Shown here: positions 2,830 through 50,539 of the stretch, in pieces
How positions within the stretch are numbered: the first letter of the stretch is position 1
Layout: every line of letters starts with the position of its first letter
From: Candidatus Kerfeldbacteria bacterium
Lineage (GTDB): Bacteria > Patescibacteriota > Patescibacteriia > SBBC01
Direction: 5' to 3'
DNA length: 64,000 nt
Assembly: GCA_043799405.1 (NCBI GenBank)
Contig: JAZDNT010000003.1
Location: forward strand, 335,461 to 399,460
Notes under the pieces: model-generated
Databases searched by the model: none
Told to the model about the DNA's origin: nothing
What the model saw: the letters and a program-made list of their open reading frames with translations, nothing else
Position numbers and translations under genes: made by a program

Positions 2830-4719
2830 ATGGAATTTCCTAAAAATGTAACAGAAACGCTGCAGAAGCTCCCAGCGAAACCGGGTGTGTACATTTTCAA
2901 AGACGCGACGAAAAACGTGCTGTACGTCGGCAAGGCGAATAGGCTCCGCAGCCGCGTAAAGAGCTACTTCCGGCAGTCCGCAACTCTCGATCCTATAAAA
3001 CGGATCATGGTGGGAAGGATCGCGGAACTTGACTATATCATCGTCAGCACGGAGACCGAAGCGCTCCTGCTTGAATCCACGCTGATAAAAAGGCACCATC
3101 CGCCATTCAACGTCATTTTCAGGGACGACAAGTACTACCAGTACATCCGCATAGCGATTAAAGACGATTTTCCGCGCGTCGACACTGTCCGCCGTATCGC
3201 ACGAGACGGCAGCCGATACTTCGGTCCGTATACATCCGGGCACGCAGTACAACAGACGCTGAAGCTGCTCAAACGGATATTCCCCTACAAGTCGTGCGTA
3301 GAACCGCCGTCGCGCCTCTGCTTCGATGCGCGCCTCGGGCGATGCCTCGGCCACGATTTCGGTCCCGGGAGCAAAAAAGCGTACCGGGATATTATTGATA
3401 AGCTCATACGATTCCTTAAGGGAGACACGGATACCGTTTTACGAGACCTAAAGACCAGCATGAAGCAGGTAGCAAAAGAAAGGCAGTTCGAGCTCGCTGC
3501 GCGCTACCGCGACCGTATCTTCGCGATTCAGAAGGTCGCTGCGGAACAAAAGGTGGTCTCAACACAACAGGAAAATCAAGACACTATCGGTATCGCTCGT
3601 ATAGGCGATGTTGCAGCAGTGAACCTCTTTCAGGTTCGCGCCGGAAAGCTGATCAACCGTCAGTACCACGTGCTCCAACACGTCGAGCCGCTGTCCGATG
3701 CGGAAGTCCTCGCATCGTTCGCAGCACAGTACTACGCCGAATCATCGGATCGGCCGAGATCGGTCGTTACGCGCGTACTCCCCGTAGGCGTATCGAACCT
3801 CTCGACGCTTCTTCGGCTCATCTTCGAAGCGCCGACCCGCGGGAAAAAGCGGAAGCTCGTGCAGCTCGCCGAGGAGAACGCGGCCGACTACCTTGCACAG
3901 CGACAGAAGGAATGGCTCTCAAGGGAGGCGCGGATAAAGCTCGGACTAGCCAACCTTCAGCGAGCACTGCTGTTCCCTGATCCTCCGGAACGTATCGAGT
4001 GTTACGACATCTCGAACGTGCAGGGCGCGAACGCGGTCGGTTCCATGGTCGTATTCGAACACGGGGTCCCTAAAAAAACCGAGTATCGGAAGTTCAACAT
4101 CAAGACGGTCAAAGGAAGCAACGACTACGCAATGCTCCAGGAGGTCATCCGCCGCCGCTTTGACCATCACTCCCCTCCTGCCCGAGGAGGGGTGCCCGAA
4201 GGGCGGGGTGGTGGGAGTTCCTCCCCTGCCCGAGGTCGCCGACGCACTACAGCCGGTATGGCGACGGCGCGGGAGGATGTCGCGAAGCGACAGGAGGGGT
4301 GGGAGGATCCTGACCTCATCATCATCGACGGCGGAAAAGGACAGTTGAACGCCGTCCTCGCAGTACTACGCGAACTAAACATCATGATCCCGACCATCGG
4401 GCTGGCAAAGCGCCTCGAAGAGATCTTCAGGCCGGGCATGAAAGAACCCCTGCGGTTGGCAAAGGATTCCGAAGGGCTCTTCCTCCTCCAGCGTATCCGC
4501 GACGAAGCGCACCGGTTCGCAATCGGCTCATTCCGCTTGCGTCATGAACGGGCAACGAAACAGTCGCTCCTCGACGAGGTGCCGTGTATCGGCCCTGCGC
4601 TTAAGAAAAAGCTCCTCGCGCGGTTCGGAAGCGTCGAGGGGATCAGATTGGCCGATGACAACGACATCGAAACGGTCATAGGAAAACACAGAACGGCGAT
4701 CCTGCGGGAACATCTGTAA
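2830..4719 (+). CDS. uvrC: Excinuclease ABC subunit C (UvrC) with a repeat-derived insertion in an interdomain linker
   Basis: GIY-YIG N-terminus (GVYIFKDATKNVLYVGKANRLRSRVKSYF), UVR region (ELAARYRDRIFAIQ), IIIDGGKGQL endonuclease domain, and a C-terminal HhH region. Confidence 0.93.
   Translation: MEFPKNVTETLQKLPAKPGVYIFKDATKNVLYVGKANRLRSRVKSYFRQSATLDPIKRIMVGRIAELDYIIVSTETEALLLESTLIKRHHPPFNVIFRDDKYYQYIRIAIKDDFPRVDTVRRIARDGSRYFGPYTSGHAVQQTLKLLKRIFPYKSCVEPPSRLCFDARLGRCLGHDFGPGSKKAYRDIIDKLIRFLKGDTDTVLRDLKTSMKQVAKERQFELAARYRDRIFAIQKVAAEQKVVSTQQENQDTIGIARIGDVAAVNLFQVRAGKLINRQYHVLQHVEPLSDAEVLASFAAQYYAESSDRPRSVVTRVLPVGVSNLSTLLRLIFEAPTRGKKRKLVQLAEENAADYLAQRQKEWLSREARIKLGLANLQRALLFPDPPERIECYDISNVQGANAVGSMVVFEHGVPKKTEYRKFNIKTVKGSNDYAMLQEVIRRRFDHHSPPARGGVPEGRGGGSSSPARGRRRTTAGMATAREDVAKRQEGWEDPDLIIIDGGKGQLNAVLAVLRELNIMIPTIGLAKRLEEIFRPGMKEPLRLAKDSEGLFLLQRIRDEAHRFAIGSFRLRHERATKQSLLDEVPCIGPALKKKLLARFGSVEGIRLADDNDIETVIGKHRTAILREHL
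4171..4218 (+). repeat. GC palindromic repeat family A, copy inside the uvrC ORF
   Basis: TCCCCTCCTGCCCGAGGAGGGG ... GGGGTGGTGGGAGTT matches the intergenic copies at 49585-49624, 32538-32576 and 50488-50525 (reverse complement). Here it is translated in frame as SPPARGGVPEGRGGGS. Confidence 0.8.
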
Positions 4720-4820: not shown

Positions 4821-5234
4821 CTACGTTCGGTCCCCGACGTCGTCGGGCCCGAGCGCGGTGGTGGCGCAGAACTCGCTCATCAGGACCGAGCAGTCCGCGC
4901 AGACCGTATCGCCGTTGGAGCACCCCCGAGGCTCCAGGGTAGGATTGATCGTGCTGTTCACGCAGATGTCGGCGCCCGTGGTCGGGATACCGACGGTGAT
5001 CGAAGTGGCCGCGCAGATGGTCGCGGTGCCCGTGCTCGGCGTGAGCAGGGCCTGACCCGCCGCGTTGGCGCAGGTGCCGCAGATGTCGTCGATCGAATTC
5101 ACGAAATACCCGTTGCCCCCAGTGATGACCTGGGGCGGTGATTTCCCGTGGACCTGACCGATCGCGGCATTGCCGATCACGGCAGCCACGACCATCAGGA
5201 CCGCGAGGAAGATGAACCTCTTCAGAGTACCCAT
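4821..5234 (-). CDS. Secreted Cys-rich hypothetical protein in a small GC-rich patch
   Basis: Signal-peptide-like N-terminus (MGTLKRFIFLAVLMVVAAVIGNA), 8 Cys, Gly/Thr-rich. AAGGAGG Shine-Dalgarno. Confidence 0.6.
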   Translation of the reverse strand: MGTLKRFIFLAVLMVVAAVIGNAAIGQVHGKSPPQVITGGNGYFVNSIDDICGTCANAAGQALLTPSTGTATICAATSITVGIPTTGADICVNSTINPTLEPRGCSNGDTVCADCSVLMSEFCATTALGPDDVGDRT

Positions 5235-5322
5235 TGGGCACCTCCTTTGAAGTCACCTTGTGTGCGGATGGGAACGAACTTCCATGTTTCTGCCTGCCGC
5301 ACACTTCCAAGCAGAACGAAAG

Positions 5323-5351
5323 AAGTTAGCAGAATACTGTTCTCCTGTCAA
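5323..5351 (-). promoter_or_regulatory. Promoter TTGACA-N17-TAACTT upstream of the 4821-5234 gene
   Basis: The rc of 5346-5351 is TTGACA and the rc of 5323-5328 is TAACTT, with a 17-nt spacer. It lies in lower-GC flanking sequence. Confidence 0.45.
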
Positions 5352-5623
5352 GTCCCTTGTACGAAATGTGCCGTGTAACAAGCACAAACTAATGATATAG
5401 TGGGTATGCGGTTCTTATGAAAAAAACGCACGCAATAACAAAAGCCGAACGCCGAGAACGGCGGAAAAAGCCGACCATGAAGGTTTCCGGCGCCTCGGTA
5501 AAGACGCTCCAGAGGATTATTGCGACTCGCAAGAATGTTGACAGAGGGGGGTAACTGTGGTAACGTCCGTGTAGGCCTTGCATGGCCTTTTCAGTTGAAC
5601 GAACATTGAGTACCGCTAGAAGT

Positions 5624-5848
5624 ATGACGAGAGTATTAGAAATCGGACAGATCGTCGTCGCAGCGCTCCTCGTGACGGCTATTTTGCTACAGAGCAAAGG
5701 AACAGGCATCGGCGGAGTGTTCGGCGGCGGCGAGGGTAACATCTACCGGACAAAGCGTGGAGCTGAAAAGGTCATCTTTATCAGCACCATAGTGCTGAGC
5801 GTTCTCTTCTTCGGAATGGCGTTCGCATCCGTGCTCATCCGCCGATAA
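5624..5848 (+). CDS. secG: Preprotein translocase subunit SecG
   Basis: Two TM helices flank LLQSKGTGIGGVFGGGEGNIYRTKRGAEKV, a typical SecG loop. Start chosen at the internal Met of track ORF 5582..5848. Confidence 0.8.
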   Translation: MTRVLEIGQIVVAALLVTAILLQSKGTGIGGVFGGGEGNIYRTKRGAEKVIFISTIVLSVLFFGMAFASVLIRR

Positions 5849-5862
5849 CGAGGCGGAAACAA

Positions 5863-7671
5863 GTGTTCACTCGAATGTTGCATTCGTTACGTACAACCCT
5901 CAACCGGATTTTTCGGCGGAGGGCGTCGGTCGTTCAGGCACCGGATACCCATGCTGACGCTGAACGGCGGATGGTCTACACGCTCGCGAAGTCACGGCTG
6001 CCCACGTTCCGGCAGCTCCGCTACCTCCCGACGGTCGCCTCCTCTACAGAGCGACTTCTGCTGCTTACGCTCAGCGGCTTTGTAATCGTCTCACTGCTCT
6101 TCCTTGGCGCACGGGCGTACGCCCGGAACGTTACCCTTCTTCCCCGCAGCGGAGGCGGGATCGTTGAGGCGATCGTCGGAACGCCGCAGTACTTAAACCC
6201 GATACTCGTCAGCACGAACGATGTCGACCGCGACCTCGTTGCGTTCTTGTATGCCGGCCTCTTCAAGCGAAACGGAGCGCAAAAAATCGAGCCTGACCTT
6301 GCTGAATCATATGAGGTCAGCACTGACAACAAGGTGTACACCGTTCACCTCAGAAAGGGTCTTGCGTGGTCGGACGGAACACCGTTGACATCTGACGATG
6401 TTCTGCTGACGTTCGAACTGATACAAGATTCCCTCTACAAGAGCCCGCTTCGGGGTCAGTTCAAAAACATGAAGGTCGAGCGCCTCGATGAAACCAGCGT
6501 ACGCTTCACGCTCACACAACCGACATCAGCCTTTTTCTCGTCGCTGACGGTCGGCATACTGCCCGCACACATCTGGGGCGACGTGCCGCCACCGAGCTTT
6601 GCGCTCATCGAGTACAACATTAAACCTATCGGTGCCGGACCGTATCAGTTCGAATCGTTGAAGCGCGACGCGAGCACCGGCGCGATCAAAGAGTACCACC
6701 TTGTGAGAAACAAACAGTATCACGGCAGTTGTCCCTACCTCAACGAGTACACGTTCAAGATATTCATGGACACGGAGTCGGCACTGCAGGCCCTCCGTTC
6801 AAAGAAGGTCGATAGCATAAGCGTCGTAACCGCGGAGCAGCGGGCTGAAGCGAAGCAGGTACGGCTCATTGATCTTCAGATTCCGCAGTACACCGCGCTC
6901 TTCATCAATACGAAACGGCCAGTACTAAAAACGATCGAGGTTCGAAACGCGCTCGCTACGGCAGTGGACAGAAACGACCTCGTCTCATCCATACTCCGTG
7001 GCTCCGCGCTCGTGGTCGACGGCCCGATCCCGCCAAACATGCCGGGATACGCAGGCCCGCTACAGCCAGGATTCAACGTCGATGAGGCGAACCGTATTCT
7101 CGAGAATGCGGGCTGGAAACGAACAGACAGCGGAAACGTGCGAAAGAAAGGGAACGACGAGCTCGCATTCTCCCTCAGCGTCTCCGATGTTCCGGAAGAC
7201 CTAGTAATCGCTGAAAAGCTTAAGGCGGCATGGGAAAAAGTCGGAGCGAAGGTCGAGATAAAATCGTTCGATACGTCCCGCATCGCAAAAGAGATCATTA
7301 AACCCCGCAGCTACGATGTGTTCCTCTACGGCGAGATTCTCTCGGTGGACGCCGACCTCTACCCGTTCTGGCACTCAAGTCAGGAACGGGATCCGGGACT
7401 GAACCTGACGAATTTCTACAACAAGGACGCGGACAAGCTGCTCGAGGAACTGAGGACAGCGGTCGATCCTGCCGTCATCGCCGAAAAACGCATCGCTTTC
7501 CAAAAGCTCCTCGCAAAAGACCTGCCGGCAATCTTCCTCTACAGCCCTCTGTATACCTACGGACTCTCGAAGCGGGTAAAGGGTTTCGACGTCGCCTTCG
7601 TTACGAACCCCTCGGACCGGTTCGCAGATATTTCAAAGTGGTACGTAAAGACAAAGATTGCATTCAAGTAG
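5863..7671 (+). CDS. ABC transporter substrate-binding protein, family 5 (peptide/nickel type), membrane-anchored
   Basis: 602 aa with an N-terminal TM anchor and family-5 SBP-like architecture (LNPILVSTNDVDRDL, IKPIGAGPYQF). Confidence 0.7.
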   Translation: MFTRMLHSLRTTLNRIFRRRASVVQAPDTHADAERRMVYTLAKSRLPTFRQLRYLPTVASSTERLLLLTLSGFVIVSLLFLGARAYARNVTLLPRSGGGIVEAIVGTPQYLNPILVSTNDVDRDLVAFLYAGLFKRNGAQKIEPDLAESYEVSTDNKVYTVHLRKGLAWSDGTPLTSDDVLLTFELIQDSLYKSPLRGQFKNMKVERLDETSVRFTLTQPTSAFFSSLTVGILPAHIWGDVPPPSFALIEYNIKPIGAGPYQFESLKRDASTGAIKEYHLVRNKQYHGSCPYLNEYTFKIFMDTESALQALRSKKVDSISVVTAEQRAEAKQVRLIDLQIPQYTALFINTKRPVLKTIEVRNALATAVDRNDLVSSILRGSALVVDGPIPPNMPGYAGPLQPGFNVDEANRILENAGWKRTDSGNVRKKGNDELAFSLSVSDVPEDLVIAEKLKAAWEKVGAKVEIKSFDTSRIAKEIIKPRSYDVFLYGEILSVDADLYPFWHSSQERDPGLNLTNFYNKDADKLLEELRTAVDPAVIAEKRIAFQKLLAKDLPAIFLYSPLYTYGLSKRVKGFDVAFVTNPSDRFADISKWYVKTKIAFK

Positions 7672-7758
7672 GACGGCTGACATTTGACCTTTGACGTGTG
7701 ACACATGACTTGTAACAGTTGTAGGAGATAGAAAGTCAAACATCAAATGTTCTCACAA

Positions 7759-7844
7759 GGGCGAGTGGCGAAATGGCATACGCACTGGCTTCAGGAGCCA
7801 GCGATCGCAAGATCATGGAGGTTCGACTCCTCTCTCGCCCACCA
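7759..7844 (+). tRNA. tRNA-Leu(CAG), type II, CCA encoded
   Basis: Acceptor GGGCGAG/CTCGCCC, anticodon arm CTGGC-TTCAGGA-GCCAG, long variable arm, T-loop TTCGACT, terminal ACCA. Very similar to bacterial tRNA-Leu(CAG). Confidence 0.9.
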
Positions 7845-8702
7845 GAGCGAAGAAGCCGTTGCTTCCGTGAACAGGGAGAACGGCTTGTTCGCTGTGTACA
7901 GCGCTTTTCTCCCGGTGACCCGATAGTTCGACCCGACCACCTCCACGATCTGCCGTTGCTGAACCCGCGTGCCGTCACGGAAGACCTGCGGGGCGTGCAG
8001 CGAGAAGGCGAGGGCCTGGTCCACGCGCTCTAGCAGCGCCTCCGGCGACTCACCGGGTCGGTCGAGCCGTAGCTGCAGCTGCGCGCGGCGGTCCTGAAGC
8101 GCCGTCTTGCGACGCTCGTAGGTCGCGTCGTCGATCGAACCTCGGAGCCGCAGGGTGAGAAGCGTCTCTTCTTCGGCAGCTGCCTGCAGGACGGCATTCT
8201 CCAGCGATTCCCTGGCAGTGCGAAGTTGGCCGACCTCGCCCTCGAGCGAGTGTTTGAGGTTGTCGCGGATCCACCCGGCCGCTTCGGGTGTGAGGCACAT
8301 CCGCTTTAAGTCCTGGGCCAGCTGCTCACGGAGGGTCTCCTCAGGCAACGCCGGCTCGGAGCAGGTCTCGCCGATACGCCTACGGTGACAGCGGTAGTAG
8401 ACGTAGCGCTTGCCGCTCGGCTTGACGTGCGCTTCGGCGACTAACGCCCGGCCGCACGAGGCGCAGTGAAGAAGCCCCGAGAAGGTGAAGTCGTGGTGCA
8501 CCGGCCGGGCTCGACTTGGCCGACCGAGCAACTCCTGCGCGCGTTCGAACTCCTCGGGCGCGACCATCGGCACGTGAGCGCCCTTGTAGGCCTCGCCGCT
8601 GACGTCGGCGTCCTCCTCGAGGAGATGCGCAACGATGGCAGTTGGGTCCGCCAGTGGCGCCGCGCCGCCATCGAGTACGCCAAGTAGCACCTGGTTGTCC
8701 AC
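7791..8702 (-). pseudogene. Large serine recombinase, C-terminal fragment only (zinc beta-ribbon plus coiled coil); catalytic resolvase domain missing
   Basis: FSGLLHCASCGRALVAEAH...KRYVYYRCHRR zinc-ribbon and a long coiled-coil tail. No N-terminal catalytic Ser domain in any upstream frame. The last ~18 codons read through the complement of tRNA-Leu. Confidence 0.7.
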
Positions 8703-32520: not shown

Positions 32521-32589
32521 ACACCGCGGGTTTTATCTCCCCTCCTGCCTGAGGAGGGGCTTGGGGGAGGAGGGAGAAACCCGCGGTGT
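32521..32589 (+). repeat. Repeat family A copy enclosed by a 13-bp outer stem
   Basis: ACACCGCGGGTTT ... TCCCCTCCTGCCTGAGGAGGGGCTTGGGGGAGGAGGGAG ... AAACCCGCGGTGT. Confidence 0.8.
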
Positions 32590-44775: not shown

Positions 44776-45339
44776 TCACCCCGCCTTAACGACAACGAGA
44801 CCGTAGTGGTACTGTCCTGCCTCGAACTGATCGAACGGTGCGAGACCGACCTGACTGCAGAGCTCGAGTATGCGTTGCAGCGGAACGACCTGTTCGCGTT
44901 TCGGTCCGAACGCTTCGCCGCCCTTTGTCCATTCAATAATGAGGAGACGCGCGCCTGATTTCAGCATACGCGCGCACTCGGTCAGGATCTCCTTCTGCTT
45001 CTTCGAACTGTGGAGTACGTTCACGAGGATGCCGAAGTCGAGCGATCCGTCCCGTACCACGCGCGCGCCACCGACGATCTCAAGGTCAGACCAGACAGGC
45101 TTGAAGTTCATGCACCCTTCGAGCCGGGCTTTCCCAAGGGCGCTCGAAAGCGCCGGCTTGAAAACGTCGATCGCGAAGACGACGCCGCGGTCGCCTATCA
45201 TCTTCGATGCCTGGATCCCGAAGTATGCGGCACCTCCGACGCCGAAATCCCCGACGTGCATGCCAGCGGACAACCCTGACCGTTCGAGCAGCTTTACTGG
45301 ATCGAGGAACGACCTTCCGGACGGTACGATTTCGTTCAT
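44776..45339 (-). CDS. Class I SAM-dependent methyltransferase
   Basis: VGDFGVGGAAYF (motif I-like) and RLLIIEW (motif IV region). Confidence 0.65.
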   Translation of the reverse strand: MNEIVPSGRSFLDPVKLLERSGLSAGMHVGDFGVGGAAYFGIQASKMIGDRGVVFAIDVFKPALSSALGKARLEGCMNFKPVWSDLEIVGGARVVRDGSLDFGILVNVLHSSKKQKEILTECARMLKSGARLLIIEWTKGGEAFGPKREQVVPLQRILELCSQVGLAPFDQFEAGQYHYGLVVVKAG

Positions 45340-45345
45340 AAGCCT

Positions 45346-45954
45346 CTACCTCATGTGTTTCATCGGGACGAAACTCCGACGATGTATTTTCGATAGGCCA
45401 AGCTTCTTGAGTTTCTTGCGGTGGTCCGCGGTCCCGTACCCGACGTGTTTCCAGAATCCGTAGCCGGGATGCTCCCGATCGAACCCTTTCATAAGTGTAT
45501 CACGAACTACCTTCGCGACAATAGATGCCGCGGCAATGCTTAAGACCTTAACGTCGCCCTTGATGATCGCCTTCACGGTTTTCTTCCCGAACTTCACCTT
45601 AACCGCATCGATGAGAACAGCGTCCGGTTCGACGTGGAGCTTTTTGAGCGACTGTTCAATGGCCTTCGTGTTCGCTTTTTGGATGCCGATACGGTCGATC
45701 GTATCGTGCGAAACGACGCCGACAGCCCAGCTTAACGCGTTCTTCGTGATCCGAACGAACAGCCTCTCCCGTGCCGCGGGAGAAAGCTGTTTCGAGTCCC
45801 GAACTCCCTTCACAGAAAAACGTTCCGGAAGGACGACCGCTGCGGCAACGACAGGGCCGGCCCACGCCCCTCTCCCAACCTCGTCACAACCGGCAATGGT
45901 AACGTGACCTGCCTTCCGCAGTGCCTTTTCTTCTCTTGTGTGGGGGAATAGCAT
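45346..45954 (-). CDS. rnhB: Ribonuclease HII
   Basis: IAGCDEVGRGAWAGPVVAAAVV and DSKQLS motifs. Confidence 0.88.
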   Translation of the reverse strand: MLFPHTREEKALRKAGHVTIAGCDEVGRGAWAGPVVAAAVVLPERFSVKGVRDSKQLSPAARERLFVRITKNALSWAVGVVSHDTIDRIGIQKANTKAIEQSLKKLHVEPDAVLIDAVKVKFGKKTVKAIIKGDVKVLSIAAASIVAKVVRDTLMKGFDREHPGYGFWKHVGYGTADHRKKLKKLGLSKIHRRSFVPMKHMR

Positions 45955-45966
45955 ATACCGATGTGT

Positions 45967-45995
45967 AGTGTACGCTCCCCATTAATAAAAATCAA
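45967..45995 (-). promoter_or_regulatory. Promoter TTGATT-N17-TACACT for rnhB
   Basis: The rc of 45990-45995 is TTGATT and the rc of 45967-45972 is TACACT. It lies immediately downstream of the ncRNA terminator. Confidence 0.45.
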
Positions 45996-46010
45996 AACAG
46001 TGCTTTCCTG

Positions 46011-47473
46011 AATAACAAAAACGGGCAGTCTCGCAAGTGCAAGACCCCGTCAGGAATGGTGAAAAGGTGCAAATGGTGCCAAGAACGGCACCGGTGAAAG
46101 AACGGCTCGGCGAGCCCCGTTGAAAGCTTTGCTTTTTTACGGGGCGAGCGCCGAGAGTGCGTGACCCCTTGTGGCCGCACAGCCCCACGCACAACTGCAG
46201 CGCTCGCCTGCCGTTACTCCAGTTGTCTCTGGATCAGCCCGGGTGGAACCGGCCGGTCCAGATGGGTGACTTCACGAAGCCCCTGCCGTTGTAGTGCTCC
46301 GTCGCGGAGCGAAGTCCGACGAAATACGCCGTTTGAGGAGGCGCGATCTCGTCGCACAGGCCCCAAGGATTCAGAGGCAATACCCGACAACTTGGCATGA
46401 GGCACTTCCTCACGATGAGGAACGAGAAACCCATGGCCGCGGGAAAGGGCTCCACTACGAGGTGGAGACACGGGTGCTTCTTTGCACACCGGGCGTGGAG
46501 CCCTCCCGCAGAGGATGAGAGTTGGAACCAGCTGCTTACTGGTGTAGTTCGGCAGTCCGTGCCTCCGGGATTCGGGCTCGTACCGCTTGTGGACTCGCCG
46601 GTCACAAGTCCGGTGATCACCCGAAAGCACGGCTGCCGCCCGAGTTCGGAAGATTCCGAGTCACTTCTTGACCACGGGTCGTGTGCGCTGAACGTTCAAC
46701 GCGATCTCTTCCACGATTCAGCGCGTGAACGGCGCGCCCGTGGCCTCAGTCACTTGCCGCAGTGCTGCTTCCTCACACGTCTCATGCGAACCCTCCTTGG
46801 GTTCTCACGATTGGGGGTGGTGACGTTGTGGGATCAGGGACGACTCCCGCGTGCAGAGCCCGGCAGTGTTTCGTGGACTCTTCGCTTCGCTTACTTCCTG
46901 TTGCGTTGGTACCTTCGACAGTTACCTGCCGGGACCCTGCACAACGGGGAACAGCTCCGTGAGCAGTGGGTTCTACTGGATTTTGCGCGCCGAGTCATCG
47001 ATCGCGCTCATGAACCGACTGCTTACGGTCGGCGTGCTCCGCTCAAAGGGGCGGAGCTCTCTCGTGGGGCATGCAGCAGTCCTTCCTTTGGATCTGTGCA
47101 ATCGAGAGCTGTGCGGCGCAAGTCGCGTCGCGGCCAACGGGTTGGAGGGGATGCGGATCTCGGGGGGACCCGCGCGGACCCAGGCAAGCCTTACTCCCCG
47201 AACGAAGAAGTTTCCCTGCATGCACGACCACGGTCGTGCAACCTTTGTTCTGGTCAATGAGGGATGGTCTTCGTGTTCAGGTTTCTGGGCTAGCCCAGGC
47301 AAACCAGAAACCGTTCGTGGACAGGCTTCTACTCCTTAGTTGCCGTACTCCTTTCCGTGTGTCCTCGGCGGTTCCTGAAAGCCTCACCATGCCGGTGAGG
47401 GGGAGCGAATATGCTGCAGTATTTACTTGTCAGGTTGCTATCTAGACGACGAAAAATACCGACTTCTTTATCT
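46011..47473 (-). ncRNA. Candidate very large (about 1.46 kb) structured non-coding RNA of unknown class
   Basis: No credible ORF in any frame. GC-rich and dense in perfect short hairpins. Own promoter (47480-47507) and an intrinsic terminator (hairpin 46021-46050 followed by TTTTGTTATT on the minus strand). Confidence 0.5.
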
Positions 47474-47479
47474 ACCAAA

Positions 47480-47507
47480 ACAATACTCCCGTGATAATAC
47501 TTGTCAA
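47480..47507 (-). promoter_or_regulatory. Promoter TTGACA-N16-TATTGT upstream of the candidate large ncRNA
   Basis: The rc of 47502-47507 is TTGACA and the rc of 47480-47485 is TATTGT. It sits in an AT-rich spacer between the truncated CoA-binding ORF and the GC-rich block. Confidence 0.45.
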
Positions 47508-47538
47508 GATGAGAGTACTTGGCTAATGTTAGCGAATT

Positions 47539-47778
47539 TTATATGTTACACTGCCTTCTAACGACCATTATACACGCCCCAGAAGCAACAATTCTGAGCC
47601 CGATCTGCTTTGCGTGAGCGACAATTGCAGGAGATTCTGCGCCGGGCTGGAACCACAGCCGTTTTACCCCTGCTTTCTTCGCATCATTAAGTACAGAAAT
47701 ACCGATGCTCGGGGGAACTATAACGACTGCGATATAAGGCGGGACAGCGACGATGACCTCCCCATTGCCTGTCGGCAT
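47539..47778 (-). pseudogene. CoA-binding domain protein, C-terminal half only
   Basis: 79 aa ending in GVKRLWFQPGAESPAIVAHAKQIGLRIVASGACIMV. The N-terminal Rossmann half (about 55 aa) is absent and its place is taken by a roughly 150-bp multi-hairpin element. Confidence 0.6.
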
Positions 47779-47931
47779 TTCCCCTCCTACCGCCCCCTCC
47801 CCCTCTTAAGTTTAGGAGGGGTGCCGCCTGGCGGCGGGAAGGTAGGAGGGAAAACCGCGGCGTAAAGCCGCGTTGCGGCCACGCCGCTTTACGCGGAGCG
47901 GAGAGGGGGTTGTTTTCCACTCCGGCTGACT
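47779..47931. repeat. Composite GC-rich multi-hairpin element (family A variant)
   Basis: CCCTCCTACC...GGTAGGAGGG is a 10-bp outer stem enclosing CCCCTC/GAGGGG. Hairpins CGCGGC-gtaaa-GCCGCG and CCGC-tttac-GCGG follow. Confidence 0.65.
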
Positions 47932-49206
47932 TTAAACCCCGCGTGCGACTATCGCTTCTGCAATCCGGCTTGTCGCGACGACCCACGCCGCTGTCCGGAG
48001 GTCGACACCGAGTTTTTCGTGTGTTGCCCAGACCGTTGTGAACGCTTCTGTCATCGTTCTCGAAAGCTCCCCGCGGAATTTCTTTTCGGACCAGTATGAG
48101 TTCGTCGTGTTCTGCACCCACTCGAAGTACGAGCCGACGACGCCTCCGCTGTTGGCAAGAATGTCAGGGGCAACGTACACCTTCCGCTTCATGAACCTCA
48201 TGTCGGCTTCCGGCGTAACGGCGCCGTTCGCCATTTCGAGTACGACCTTTGCCCTGACGCTCCCGGCATTCCCAGAGGTTATCGCACTCTCGAGCGCGGC
48301 CGGGACAAGGACATCGACCGGCAAGGACAGCAGCTGCCTGTTCGTTACTGATTTGTAATTCTTCGAGTCGCATACGGTCCCGACGCAGTACATACCCGCG
48401 ATCGTACCGCGCTCCTTCTTCGTTGCCAGGATGTTAACGGGATCCATTCCCTTCTTTCGAAGATCAAAGATGCCCCCGCGTGAATCAGATACTGCCACGA
48501 TGCGGTACCCGGCGTCGTGCATCAGCTTCGCAATGAAGTACCCGACGTTGCCGAATCCCTGTACGGCGACCGTTGTCTCTTTCGGCTTCTTTCCGAGCTT
48601 TGCCATGAGAAGGTCGAGCACGTGCAGTCCGCCTAAGCCCGTCGAGTATTCGCGGCCGACCGCTCCTCCGAGGTTCACGGGTTTACCAGTGAACGCGCCG
48701 GGCTGCCACGATCCCGTCAGTCGGCTGTACTCATCGACCATCCATGCCATGATCTGCGGCGTCGTGTAGACGTCGGGTGCCGGAACGTCGACCGAAGGCC
48801 CTAAATACTTATAGAGAGCGCGCACCCAGCCCCGCGACAGCTCTTCGAGCTCGCGAGGGGAGAGCGCCTTCGGATCGACCGTAACGCCTCCCTTGCCGCC
48901 GCCGAACGGGATGTTCACGGTCGCGCACTTCACCGCCATCCAGAACGCGAGCGCCTTGACCTCGGAAAGGTTCGTTTTTGGATGGAACCGAATACCGCCC
49001 TTGAATGGGCCCCGGGCGTCGTTGTACTGCACGCGGTACCCCTCGAACACCCTGGTCGAACCGTTATCCATTCGGACAGGGATGCCGACCTGTATGATCC
49101 GCTGCGGACGCTTTAGGATCTCAACAGCTCGATCCGGAAGCGAAAGGTGAGAAACCGCGCGGTTGAGCTGCGTAAGTGCGTTTCGGAAAGGATTGCTCTG
49201 TGCCAT
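47932..49206 (-). CDS. gdhA: Glutamate dehydrogenase (Glu/Leu/Phe/Val dehydrogenase family)
   Basis: GGIRFHP, KCATVNIPFGGGKGGV and VAVQGFGNVG (NAD(P) fold). Confidence 0.9.
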   Translation of the reverse strand: MAQSNPFRNALTQLNRAVSHLSLPDRAVEILKRPQRIIQVGIPVRMDNGSTRVFEGYRVQYNDARGPFKGGIRFHPKTNLSEVKALAFWMAVKCATVNIPFGGGKGGVTVDPKALSPRELEELSRGWVRALYKYLGPSVDVPAPDVYTTPQIMAWMVDEYSRLTGSWQPGAFTGKPVNLGGAVGREYSTGLGGLHVLDLLMAKLGKKPKETTVAVQGFGNVGYFIAKLMHDAGYRIVAVSDSRGGIFDLRKKGMDPVNILATKKERGTIAGMYCVGTVCDSKNYKSVTNRQLLSLPVDVLVPAALESAITSGNAGSVRAKVVLEMANGAVTPEADMRFMKRKVYVAPDILANSGGVVGSYFEWVQNTTNSYWSEKKFRGELSRTMTEAFTTVWATHEKLGVDLRTAAWVVATSRIAEAIVARGV

Positions 49207-49565: not shown

Positions 49566-49584
49566 ATGGTCTCCTTCTAAACCC

Positions 49585-49624
49585 TCCCCTCCTGCCCGAG
49601 GAGGGGCTGGGGGTGGTGGGAGTT
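49585..49624 (+). repeat. Repeat family A copy in the csoR-trxA spacer
   Basis: TCCCCTCCTGCCCGAGGAGGGGCTGGGGGTGGTGGGAGTT. It overlaps the csoR-like stop codon by 2 nt. Confidence 0.8.
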
Positions 49625-50167: not shown

Positions 50168-50242
50168 GGCCTGGTAGCCAAGTAGTAAGGCGGAGGTCTG
50201 CAAAACCTTTATACGCGGGTGCAATTCCCGCCCAGGCCTCCA
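50168..50242 (+). tRNA. tRNA-Cys(GCA), CCA encoded
   Basis: Acceptor GGCCTGG/CCAGGCC, anticodon loop CTGCAAA, T-arm GCGGG-TGCAATT-CCCGC. Confidence 0.88.
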
Positions 50243-50243
50243 T

Positions 50244-50318
50244 GCGGGCGTAGTTCAGCGGTAGAATGCTTCCTTGCCAAGGAAGAGGTCGCCGGTTCGA
50301 ATCCGGTCGCCCGCTCCA
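50244..50318 (+). tRNA. tRNA-Gly(GCC), CCA encoded
   Basis: Acceptor GCGGGCG/CGCCCGC, anticodon arm CTTCC-TTGCCAA-GGAAG, T-loop TTCGAAT. It starts 1 nt after the CCA of tRNA-Cys. Confidence 0.9.
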
Positions 50319-50476: not shown

Positions 50477-50539
50477 GCGCCCCGCCGCTCCCACCTCCCC
50501 CAACCCCTCCTCGGGCAGGAGGGGAGAACGGCGGGGCGC
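50477..50539 (-). repeat. Repeat family A copy (reverse orientation) enclosed by an 11-bp outer stem
   Basis: GCGCCCCGCCG ... rc(TCCCCTCCTGCCCGAGGAGGGGTTGGGGGAGGTGGGAG) ... CGGCGGGGCGC. Confidence 0.8.

Follow-up and report, generated by a model that had tools for sequence, protein, structure and literature searches.

Ornate large RNAs, mini open reading frames (mini-ORFs) with arrest motifs, micro-protein genes with masked Shine-Dalgarno (SD) sequences and swappable cassettes are usually studied apart. All of them appear to be united in a single RNA encoded upstream of rnhB in a Candidatus Kerfeldbacteria bacterium, on the minus strand of a stretch of 64,000 nucleotides (assembly GCA_043799405.1, contig JAZDNT010000003.1, forward-strand positions 335,461 to 399,460; hereafter the window, to which coordinates refer unless a locus is named).

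Known ornate RNAs have many invariant nucleotides. Among them, OLE (RF01071), GOLLD (RF01998) and ROOL (RF03087) are long stand-alone units, GC-richer and densely structured with covarying helices, and are confined to narrow sets of organisms, in all of which the Kerfeldbacteria RNA is like them. Unlike them, it is about twice as long (1.46-2.0 kb; an initial sequence-only reading of the window had already placed it above their size range), is poorly conserved in its interior, carries SD-preceded ORFs apparently under protein-level selection, and lies at a fixed syntenic site on the chromosome rather than in association with phages. Nor does it match any of their covariance models, even at permissive thresholds. 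Rfam 15 was searched at both gathering and permissive (E up to 10) thresholds: at the former only tRNAs elsewhere in the window were found, and at the latter the best match in the block scored 20.5 bits (E 0.13), where the gathering score is 44. The families covered include rRNA, RNase P, tmRNA, SRP RNA, group I/II introns, HEARO and raiA; the sequence-only reading had likewise seen no hallmarks of the first five of these classes. Weak matches to Twister-P5 and Bp1_684 were rejected as chance, the homologous gaps of 7 relatives gave nothing, and no large RNA described from Kerfeldbacteria or the candidate phyla radiation (CPR) was found in the literature.

Ribosome arrest at RAPP and RGPP motifs is robust and refractory to EF-P. 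These motifs are under-represented in bacterial proteomes and turn up repeatedly close to the C-terminal ends of small regulatory ORFs that precede diverse genes (PMC12992588); the discovery of RAPP arrest (PMC7897499) and its structures (PMC10951233) have been reported. Like the SecM-like arrest peptides ApdA, ApdP and ApcA, the RNA has a short, putatively arrest-prone ORF ending with R-A-P-P (window, L005) or R-P-P(-P) (relatives) upstream of other ORFs, the motif codons lying within a hairpin of a structured RNA. Unlike in ApdA, ApdP and ApcA, this ORF family (mini-ORF2 below) has 7-11 codons, short of the exit-tunnel-length nascent chain of RAPP peptides, and no signal or transmembrane segment; in mini-ORF2 the motif is followed by one residue and the stop codon, and the downstream target is not Sec/YidC machinery.

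Two further groups of systems are comparable. With hok/mok mRNAs and the dual-function RNAs RNAIII/hld, SgrS/SgrT and SR1/SR1P, the Kerfeldbacteria RNA shares an ORF of ~26-55 codons within a folded RNA, an occluded SD, upstream mini-ORFs and a stable terminator domain, whereas it is 3-5 times longer, has up to four or five ORFs, and has neither a detected antisense partner nor sequence homology to them. With the leader attenuators trpL, hisL and pheL it shares very short ORFs behind a strong SD that end inside alternative hairpins and are enriched in one amino acid (2-3 Pro codons), but no biosynthetic operon follows, the terminator lies ~1 kb further downstream, and rnhB is served by a conserved promoter of its own. 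The RNA is classed as a structured, small-ORF-bearing RNA of the dual-function type and as a member of no described family.

A conserved transcription unit upstream of rnhB

Between rnhB (45346-45954, minus strand; RNase_HII profile match, E 7e-41) and a CoA_binding_2 ORF of 79 aa (47539-47778, minus strand) lies a gap of 1,584 nt (45955-47538). From its signals, it is predicted to specify one independently transcribed minus-strand RNA of ~1.46 kb (~46012-47473). The promoter of the RNA consists of TTGACA (47507-47502), a 16-nt spacer and TATTGT (47485-47480), with 10/12 consensus matches (47480-47507, minus strand), and is the sole sigma-70-like site found by a simple consensus scan of 45300-48000; transcription would start at ~47473. 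TTGACA-N17/18-GGAGTATGTTTT is kept in the gap alignment in L001, L002, L004, L007 and L009 and also in L165, so that, with a variant form in L005, a promoter is present in 7/7 relatives covering the 5′ end (the loci are introduced below). At the opposite end, the hairpin at 46021-46050 with its U-run scores as a terminator. The rnhB promoter, TTGATT (45995-45990)-N17-TACACT (45972-45967), is separate from the RNA (45967-45995, minus strand), and its TTTTGATTTT...GCGTACACT elements stand directly after the terminator in nearly all loci of the gap alignment. A sigma-70 promoter and an intrinsic terminator are thus both kept in relatives, as expected for the independent minus-strand unit that the sequence-only reading had proposed from these same signals.

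Upstream of the promoter, ~15 nt from the -35 element, is a palindrome, GCTAAnnTTAGC, also written GCTAACATTAGC (47522-47533, minus strand). It is present in seven loci (the window, L002, L004, L005, L007, L009 and L165), in which the sequence itself is conserved rather than covarying, and it is likely to be a DNA-level operator or activator site for a putative DNA-binding protein. Downstream of the promoter, the leader motif YYGACAW (47427-47433, minus strand) occurs 71-76 nt past the -35 element in every locus.

The rnhB product is 100% identical to a protein from a Candidatus Kerfeldbacteria MAG, and many relatives were identified by rnhB (63-88% identity) in Logan, ENA, JGI and NCBI assemblies. 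The comparison set has ~11 loci: the window, L001, L002 (identical to L003), L004, L005 (identical to L006), L007 (identical to L008), L009, L010, L165, L166 and L167. All ten related Kerfeldbacteria assemblies covering the site carry the 3′ domain of the RNA directly upstream of rnhB. In L001, L004, L005, L007, L009 and L165, the CoA-binding gene and rnhB are separated by 1.45-2.0 kb with no substantial called gene, other genes there being mostly closely spaced. The contigs of L002 and L010 run out 1.5-1.7 kb upstream of rnhB, again in a stretch without a substantial called gene; L166 covers just 185 nt upstream of rnhB and L167 is a 772-bp contig, and both hold the 3′ part. Because the same architecture recurs in independent assemblies, the unit is not an assembly chimera, a possibility that the sequence-only reading had itself raised. 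A more distant Kerfeldbacteria locus, L168 (rnhB 63% identical), lacks the element and has other genes at the site, so the element has been gained or lost within the phylum. On the assemblies compared, the unit is restricted to one Kerfeldbacteria (CPR) subclade. In L168 at 5121-8000, between the GDH gene and rnhB, there are three minus-strand genes, one with a DnaJ domain, and an apparent uncalled minus-strand ORF.

The homologue set is limited to these ~11 loci because wider scans were largely unproductive. A scan of genome contigs with rnhB gave mostly Chloroflexi and one useful Kerfeldbacteria locus, a scan of metagenome contigs with the rnhB alignment gave no Kerfeldbacteria (the peptide patterns used were over-general), and a scan of viral contigs with a 3′-domain pattern gave chance matches in GC-rich phages only. 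L171, considered as a homologue, was rejected as phage coding sequence.

A MAFFT alignment of the gaps shows that both ends are conserved, while similarity between them is patchy; primary-sequence conservation of the interior is low, with near-random identity beyond very close relatives. Only the gaps of L001 and L004, whose flanking proteins are 89% identical, align end to end, at 70% identity, including blocks of 40-160 nt at 90-100% identity. Since four-fold degenerate sites of the flanking genes are 45-68% identical between these loci, purifying selection acts on the blocks. In CPR bacteria, with their tiny and gene-dense genomes, a folded, mostly non-coding transcript of 1.5-2 kb kept at one site despite saturated synonymous sites is unexpected and points to selection on the RNA itself.

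Could the block be coding after all, or have been so? There is no long credible ORF in 45955-47538. A 287-aa plus-strand ORF, dismissed in the sequence-only reading, has, like the other long ORFs, no Pfam match, and comparable ORFs occur in all frames. No Pfam domain was found in six full-frame translations of the block. Reassignment of a stop codon is excluded, since all three types occur in all six frames and no long ORF could be rescued in this way. Decay of a known gene was rejected as well, in view of the six-frame Pfam result and of the absence of a coding substitution pattern between L001 and L004. The block is GC-richer than its surroundings, as had been noticed, but modestly so (0.59-0.62 versus 0.549 for the whole window).

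Folding and covariation of the RNA

Sliding minimum free energy z-scores are -3 to -4.5 in the block and ~0 in flanking coding sequence, the minus strand folding slightly better, and all ten hairpins picked out in the sequence-only reading fold as described. The consensus fold of L001 and L004, compared with column shuffles, has z of -2 to -6 in most 200-column windows, approaching zero at ORF C (see below) and the adjoining variable stretch 1034-1228 and ~-1 at ORF B. In the same pair, 16-20% of codon differences are synonymous whichever of the six frames is read, and tblastx matches are equal across all frames. By these measures the bulk of the RNA is non-coding but folded. The most conserved interior non-coding block common to the window, L001 and L004 is a long irregular helix of ~23 bp with a variable apical part (46838-46948, minus strand; 31 predicted pairs), in which one-sided changes are retained as G.U on the minus strand. 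The 5′ domain folds into a hairpin, CCUCACC/GGUGAGG, with a 5-nt loop (47382-47400, minus strand). Its stem differs in sequence among relatives (CCGCAC/GUGCGG in L004, GCUCCC/GGGAGC in L002 and L010, CCCAG/CUGGG in L165, GGAGCG/CGCUCC in L007), with the 5-nt loop mostly retained.

The 3′ domain is conserved and structured. It includes helix P1, GGCGAGCGC/GCGCUCGCC, around a variable inner hairpin (46143-46208, minus strand), whose core is paired in 9/9 sequences; seven of its eight pairs are standard in 8-9 sequences, and an A-U to G-C double change has occurred in three lineages. An extra hairpin after P1, CCCCGU/ACGGGG (46115-46144, minus strand), is specific to the window and absent from other loci. 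There follows a 3′ element of ~105 nt (46009-46117, minus strand) in the order GUUCUUUC linker, P2 hairpin (46075-46092), UUCACCA motif, terminator hairpin (46021-46050) and U-run, the terminator hairpin carrying a conserved bulge of two bases (UG) in its 3′ strand. A search for long-range pairing partners of the single-stranded GUUCUUUC and UUCACCA gave none whose position is consistent across loci. A closing helix between the 5′ and 3′ ends through CTGCAG copies was rejected, being trivial from the palindrome and absent in other lineages.

A covariance model of the 3′ domain built from five loci recovers six further loci, all in the expected position (E of 3e-6 for L002, 8e-6 for L010, 4e-4 for L165, 3e-3 for L166, 0.07 for L005 and 0.1 for L007), and has no further match in the 64-kb window and no match at all in L168. 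In the alignment of 11 sequences, 96.3% of cells are paired and 10/14 pairs have double changes; values as high as those observed arise in 0/500 shuffles, and slid partners pair at 36-52%. At one pair, four sequences have G-C and another four G-U, a combination that suits the minus strand alone and therefore favours it. Compensatory changes beyond controls, as in a conserved structured RNA, are thus found with ten relatives in the 3′ domain, and the whole-length test rests on the single pair L001/L004. The giant structured RNA without an Rfam family that the sequence-only reading had suggested is borne out as to structure and covariation; that it is ORF-free is not, and it is probably not a pure non-coding RNA.

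Small ORFs and the signals around them

An ORF scan that takes SD sequences into account revealed several small ORFs, and one of their frames, ORF A, was singled out by tblastx. The statement that the block has no credible coding frame therefore fails on ORF A (54 aa, 46234-46398, minus strand), which is conserved at the protein level, and on a 9-codon upstream ORF (uORF), mini-ORF2 (47043-47072, minus strand), which is also conserved. The ORF A protein, MPSCRVLPLNPWGL...GRFHPG, has homologues of 47-55 aa in six lineages (the window, L009, L010, L002, L165 and L167) with 8 invariant residues and a C-terminus W-[ST]-G-R-[FY]-[VH]-P-G followed by the stop codon. Differing synonymous codons are used in 10/15 invariant residue columns, differences are enriched at the third codon position, and start and stop positions are conserved; judged from this pattern, ORF A is clearly under protein-level selection. 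The family appears to be tiny and unannotated: an exhaustive HMMER search of 1.84 billion representatives gave only two other true members, besides two spurious eukaryotic tandem-repeat proteins, and a word-indexed protein search gave zero candidates. The small ORFs have no matches in Pfam, NCBIfam, PHROGs or PADLOC. AlphaFold2 with a 3-sequence alignment gave a predicted local distance difference test score of 58 for ORF A, too poor for a fold search. ORF A of the window has no hydrophobic (transmembrane-like) stretch; the L002 and L165 variants have a hydrophobic N-terminus.

In L001, L004, L007 and probably L005, the place of ORF A is taken by ORF B, an extremely basic protein of 33-35 aa ending with RRRHGGGHRPRDHT (HGGGHRPRDHT; L001 5770-5871, L004 4993-5100, L007 9567-9671). 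The two ORFs are unrelated in sequence and alternate at one position ahead of the conserved 3′ domain. Within the C-terminal 14 codons of ORF B, which are fully conserved, nearly all differences fall at the third position, and the stop codon is TGA in one case and TAG in the other; over its last 20 codons there are 14 synonymous and 17 non-synonymous differences. The distribution of A and B conflicts with the flanking-gene tree, and in L167 an upstream part like that of L001 precedes ORF A, from which the two are taken as alternative cassettes; this distribution suggests recombinational exchange.

Mini-ORF2 of the window (MPHERAPPL*, 9 codons and stop) follows the SD AAGGAAGG at ~47080-47087. 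Its counterparts are MNTERAPPS in L005, MTTSGRPPPN in L001, MARPPPQ in L009, MFSGPKRIRPP in L165 and MPTPREFYPP in L004, each likewise behind a strong SD. The R-A-P-P core of arrest peptides is thus present in the window and L005, with the variants RPPP in L001 and L009 and RPP in L165. A hairpin at 47036-47057 (minus strand) covers the end of mini-ORF2, the Ala-Pro-Pro codons forming its 5′ strand and the stop codon lying in its loop, and this layout of Pro codons and stop in a hairpin recurs with different sequence in L005, L001 and L009.

Other small ORFs come and go. A 9-codon mini-ORF1 exists in four relatives (MSWSFKIGT, MSWSFKLGT, MPRSFKFGN and MTCSLKFPS) and is lost from the window, in which its ATG is replaced by CTG. 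ORF C, of ~35 aa, is present in L001, L004, L007, L009 and L010 and also lost from the window; between L001 and L004 it has 5 synonymous changes, 1 non-synonymous change and a 6-nt indel. At its place the window has an 11-codon ORF, MRRVRKQHCGK* (46750-46785, minus strand; SD AAGGAGG), probably a truncated remnant of ORF C. In L165, paralogous small ORFs at 993-1100 and 1219-1344 encode MSARMLFDSCAYAAR...ETEYFAKK... and MSAIIVFGRIAFDSCVYKAR...ETEYFTKKK..., of which the window retains a 12-codon remnant with the same MSAI start codons (~46973-47011, minus strand).

Several hairpins coincide with translation signals. An anti-SD/SD hairpin, UUCCUCA/UGAGGAA (46406-46422, minus strand), includes the SD of ORF A in its 3′ strand and is predicted to mask it. 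Equivalent masking is predicted in L009, L010, L165 and L167 and, for ORF B, in L004. The strong SD of the 11-codon ORF also lies within a hairpin (46788-46804). On the predicted folds, hairpins are arranged around SDs, proline codons and stops as expected for translational control.

A model of translational gating and the surrounding sequence

How could so long an RNA and such short ORFs work together? The best reading is that the RNA is either a micro-protein mRNA gated at the level of translation or an RNA with a dual function. Ribosomes would load on the leader mini-ORFs and, depending on translation capacity, EF-P or prolyl-tRNA, pause at the R-[AP]-P-P end of mini-ORF2. The paused ribosome would melt local hairpins and re-route folding of the downstream RNA, and this refolding may decide whether ribosomes can reach the masked SD of the distal micro-protein gene. 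Stability, and the default silence of the small ORFs, would come from the large folded spacers together with the bulged terminator domain. That the locus specifies a new, clade-restricted, heavily folded RNA with several small ORFs, in which ribosome pausing at leader uORFs gates a masked micro-protein SD, has in our estimate an even chance of being right.

Some points weigh against this gating model. Some non-coding blocks are better conserved than the coding sequence of the small ORFs, which would indicate a function at the RNA level beyond translational control, and individual small ORFs seem dispensable because the window has lost mini-ORF1 and ORF C. Coupling between the uORFs and ORF A is read from geometry only, and in GC-rich hairpins chance alone would be expected to yield CCN-rich strands. 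To our knowledge, a 9-residue peptide is far below the length of all characterised RAPP arrest peptides. L001/L004 is the only pair alignable at full length, so that whole-length statistics rest on two sequences, and the 3′-domain alignment used for covariation was fitted to the model.

The same evidence bears on a large structured non-coding RNA acting at the RNA level as a scaffold, in assembly or as a catalyst, in the manner of OLE, GOLLD and ROOL, with short ORFs that are accessory or incidental. Such an RNA would explain why 1.45-2.0 kb are retained in streamlined CPR genomes despite saturated synonymous sites, why blocks 90-100% identical outlast the small ORFs, why the RNA ends persist while mini-ORF1 and ORF C are lost and A/B cassettes swapped, and why helices covary and consensus folds reach significance over most of the RNA. 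It accords less well with the near-random interior identity beyond close relatives, which is unlike ornate RNAs, with protein-level selection on ORF A, with many hairpins placed exactly on SDs and stop codons, and with the lack of an Rfam match, and we consider it rather improbable, though the strongest rival of the gating model. A related view, in which arrest-type mini-ORFs couple ribosome traffic to folding of a lineage-specific new RNA class of 1.5-2 kb with a primary role at the RNA level, is slightly easier to accept and is offered tentatively; with the same reserve, the RNA could then be a translation-sensing giant riboregulator or scaffold, more than an mRNA. The masked SD can also be seen differently. 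In a type I toxin-like or competition-peptide locus, ORFs A and B would be alternative toxic or secreted peptides under diversifying selection, translationally silent in an SD-occluded mRNA of high stability. The conserved masking hairpin, leader ORFs as in mok/hok coupling, an A/B distribution off the flanking-gene tree with L167 as a hybrid, the hydrophobic N-terminus of ORF A in L002 and L165 and the extreme basicity of ORF B all suit this explanation. Yet the window ORF A has no transmembrane-like segment, a transcript of 1.5-2 kb exceeds every known type I toxin mRNA several-fold, searches of PADLOC, PHROGs, Pfam and NCBIfam gave no match, and a simple consensus scan of 45300-48000, itself weak evidence, gave no plus-strand antisense promoter; a toxin locus is therefore unlikely.

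Finally, the block might be a functionless spacer, the decayed gene or inserted-element remnant that low interior conservation between most lineages, comparable ORFs in all frames, a TGTTTTGATTT-like direct repeat flanking the unit and mobile GC-rich palindromes resembling repetitive extragenic palindromic (REP) sequences could suggest, its hairpins due to GC-richness and its ORFs to chance. This is largely refuted, and very improbable, in view of the promoter, terminator, 3′ domain and several helices conserved with covariation, gap blocks at 90-100% against 45-68% at four-fold degenerate sites, and protein-level conservation of ORF A with no protein-domain trace in six frames. The interior is single-copy, without terminal inverted repeats, and its size persists under strong streamlining. 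If uORFs do gate folding as in the gating model, the RNA would offer a natural case of ribosome stalling governing an RNA fold on the kilobase scale. The small ORFs also bring unannotated families of micro-proteins into a phylum known biologically mostly through annotation, and they illustrate that "ORF-free structured RNA" calls from sequence alone can conceal conserved small ORFs.

The unit has no internal repeats or terminal inverted repeats of note, and, being single-copy in its interior, it does not behave as a REP, a miniature inverted-repeat transposable element (MITE) or another mobile element, which would be multicopy or bounded by terminal inverted repeats. It is flanked by a 19-nt imperfect direct repeat (74% identity; core TGTTTTGATTT, minus strand) at 45993-46011 and 47476-47494, of which the former copy overlaps the -35 element of rnhB and the latter the -10/start region of the RNA promoter. 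A TTTTGAT-type core similar to it is present at both unit ends in several relatives. The repeat might record an old insertion into a tandem-promoter region, or it might be due to chance.

On the upstream side, the CoA_binding_2 ORF covers only positions 54-114 of the 116 of its profile. It is truncated, as the sequence-only reading had it, because it aligns with only ~residues 64-148 of a relative's intact 148-aa protein. Compared with relatives, the gene (47539-47931) lacks ~63 N-terminal residues at its 5′ end, which are replaced by ~150 nt of very stable GC-rich hairpins (z -6, minus strand), including one REP-like palindrome, directly behind the GDH gene. An insertion or deletion has probably turned the CoA-binding gene into a pseudogene. 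Five intergenic sites (4173-4191, 32540-32558, 47795-47820, 49582-49605 and 50505-50523) carry copies of a GC-rich palindrome, CCCTCC...GGAGGG, frequently CCCTCCTGCCCGAGGAGGG, with 6 matches (two of them overlapping) versus 0.05 expected. In L004 (~5300-5390) and L167 (~680-760), copies are inserted between the RNA terminator and the rnhB promoter. The palindrome has the appearance of a REP- or MITE-type element belonging to these genomes. Two adjacent tRNA genes 5 nt apart (50168-50315) are ordinary.

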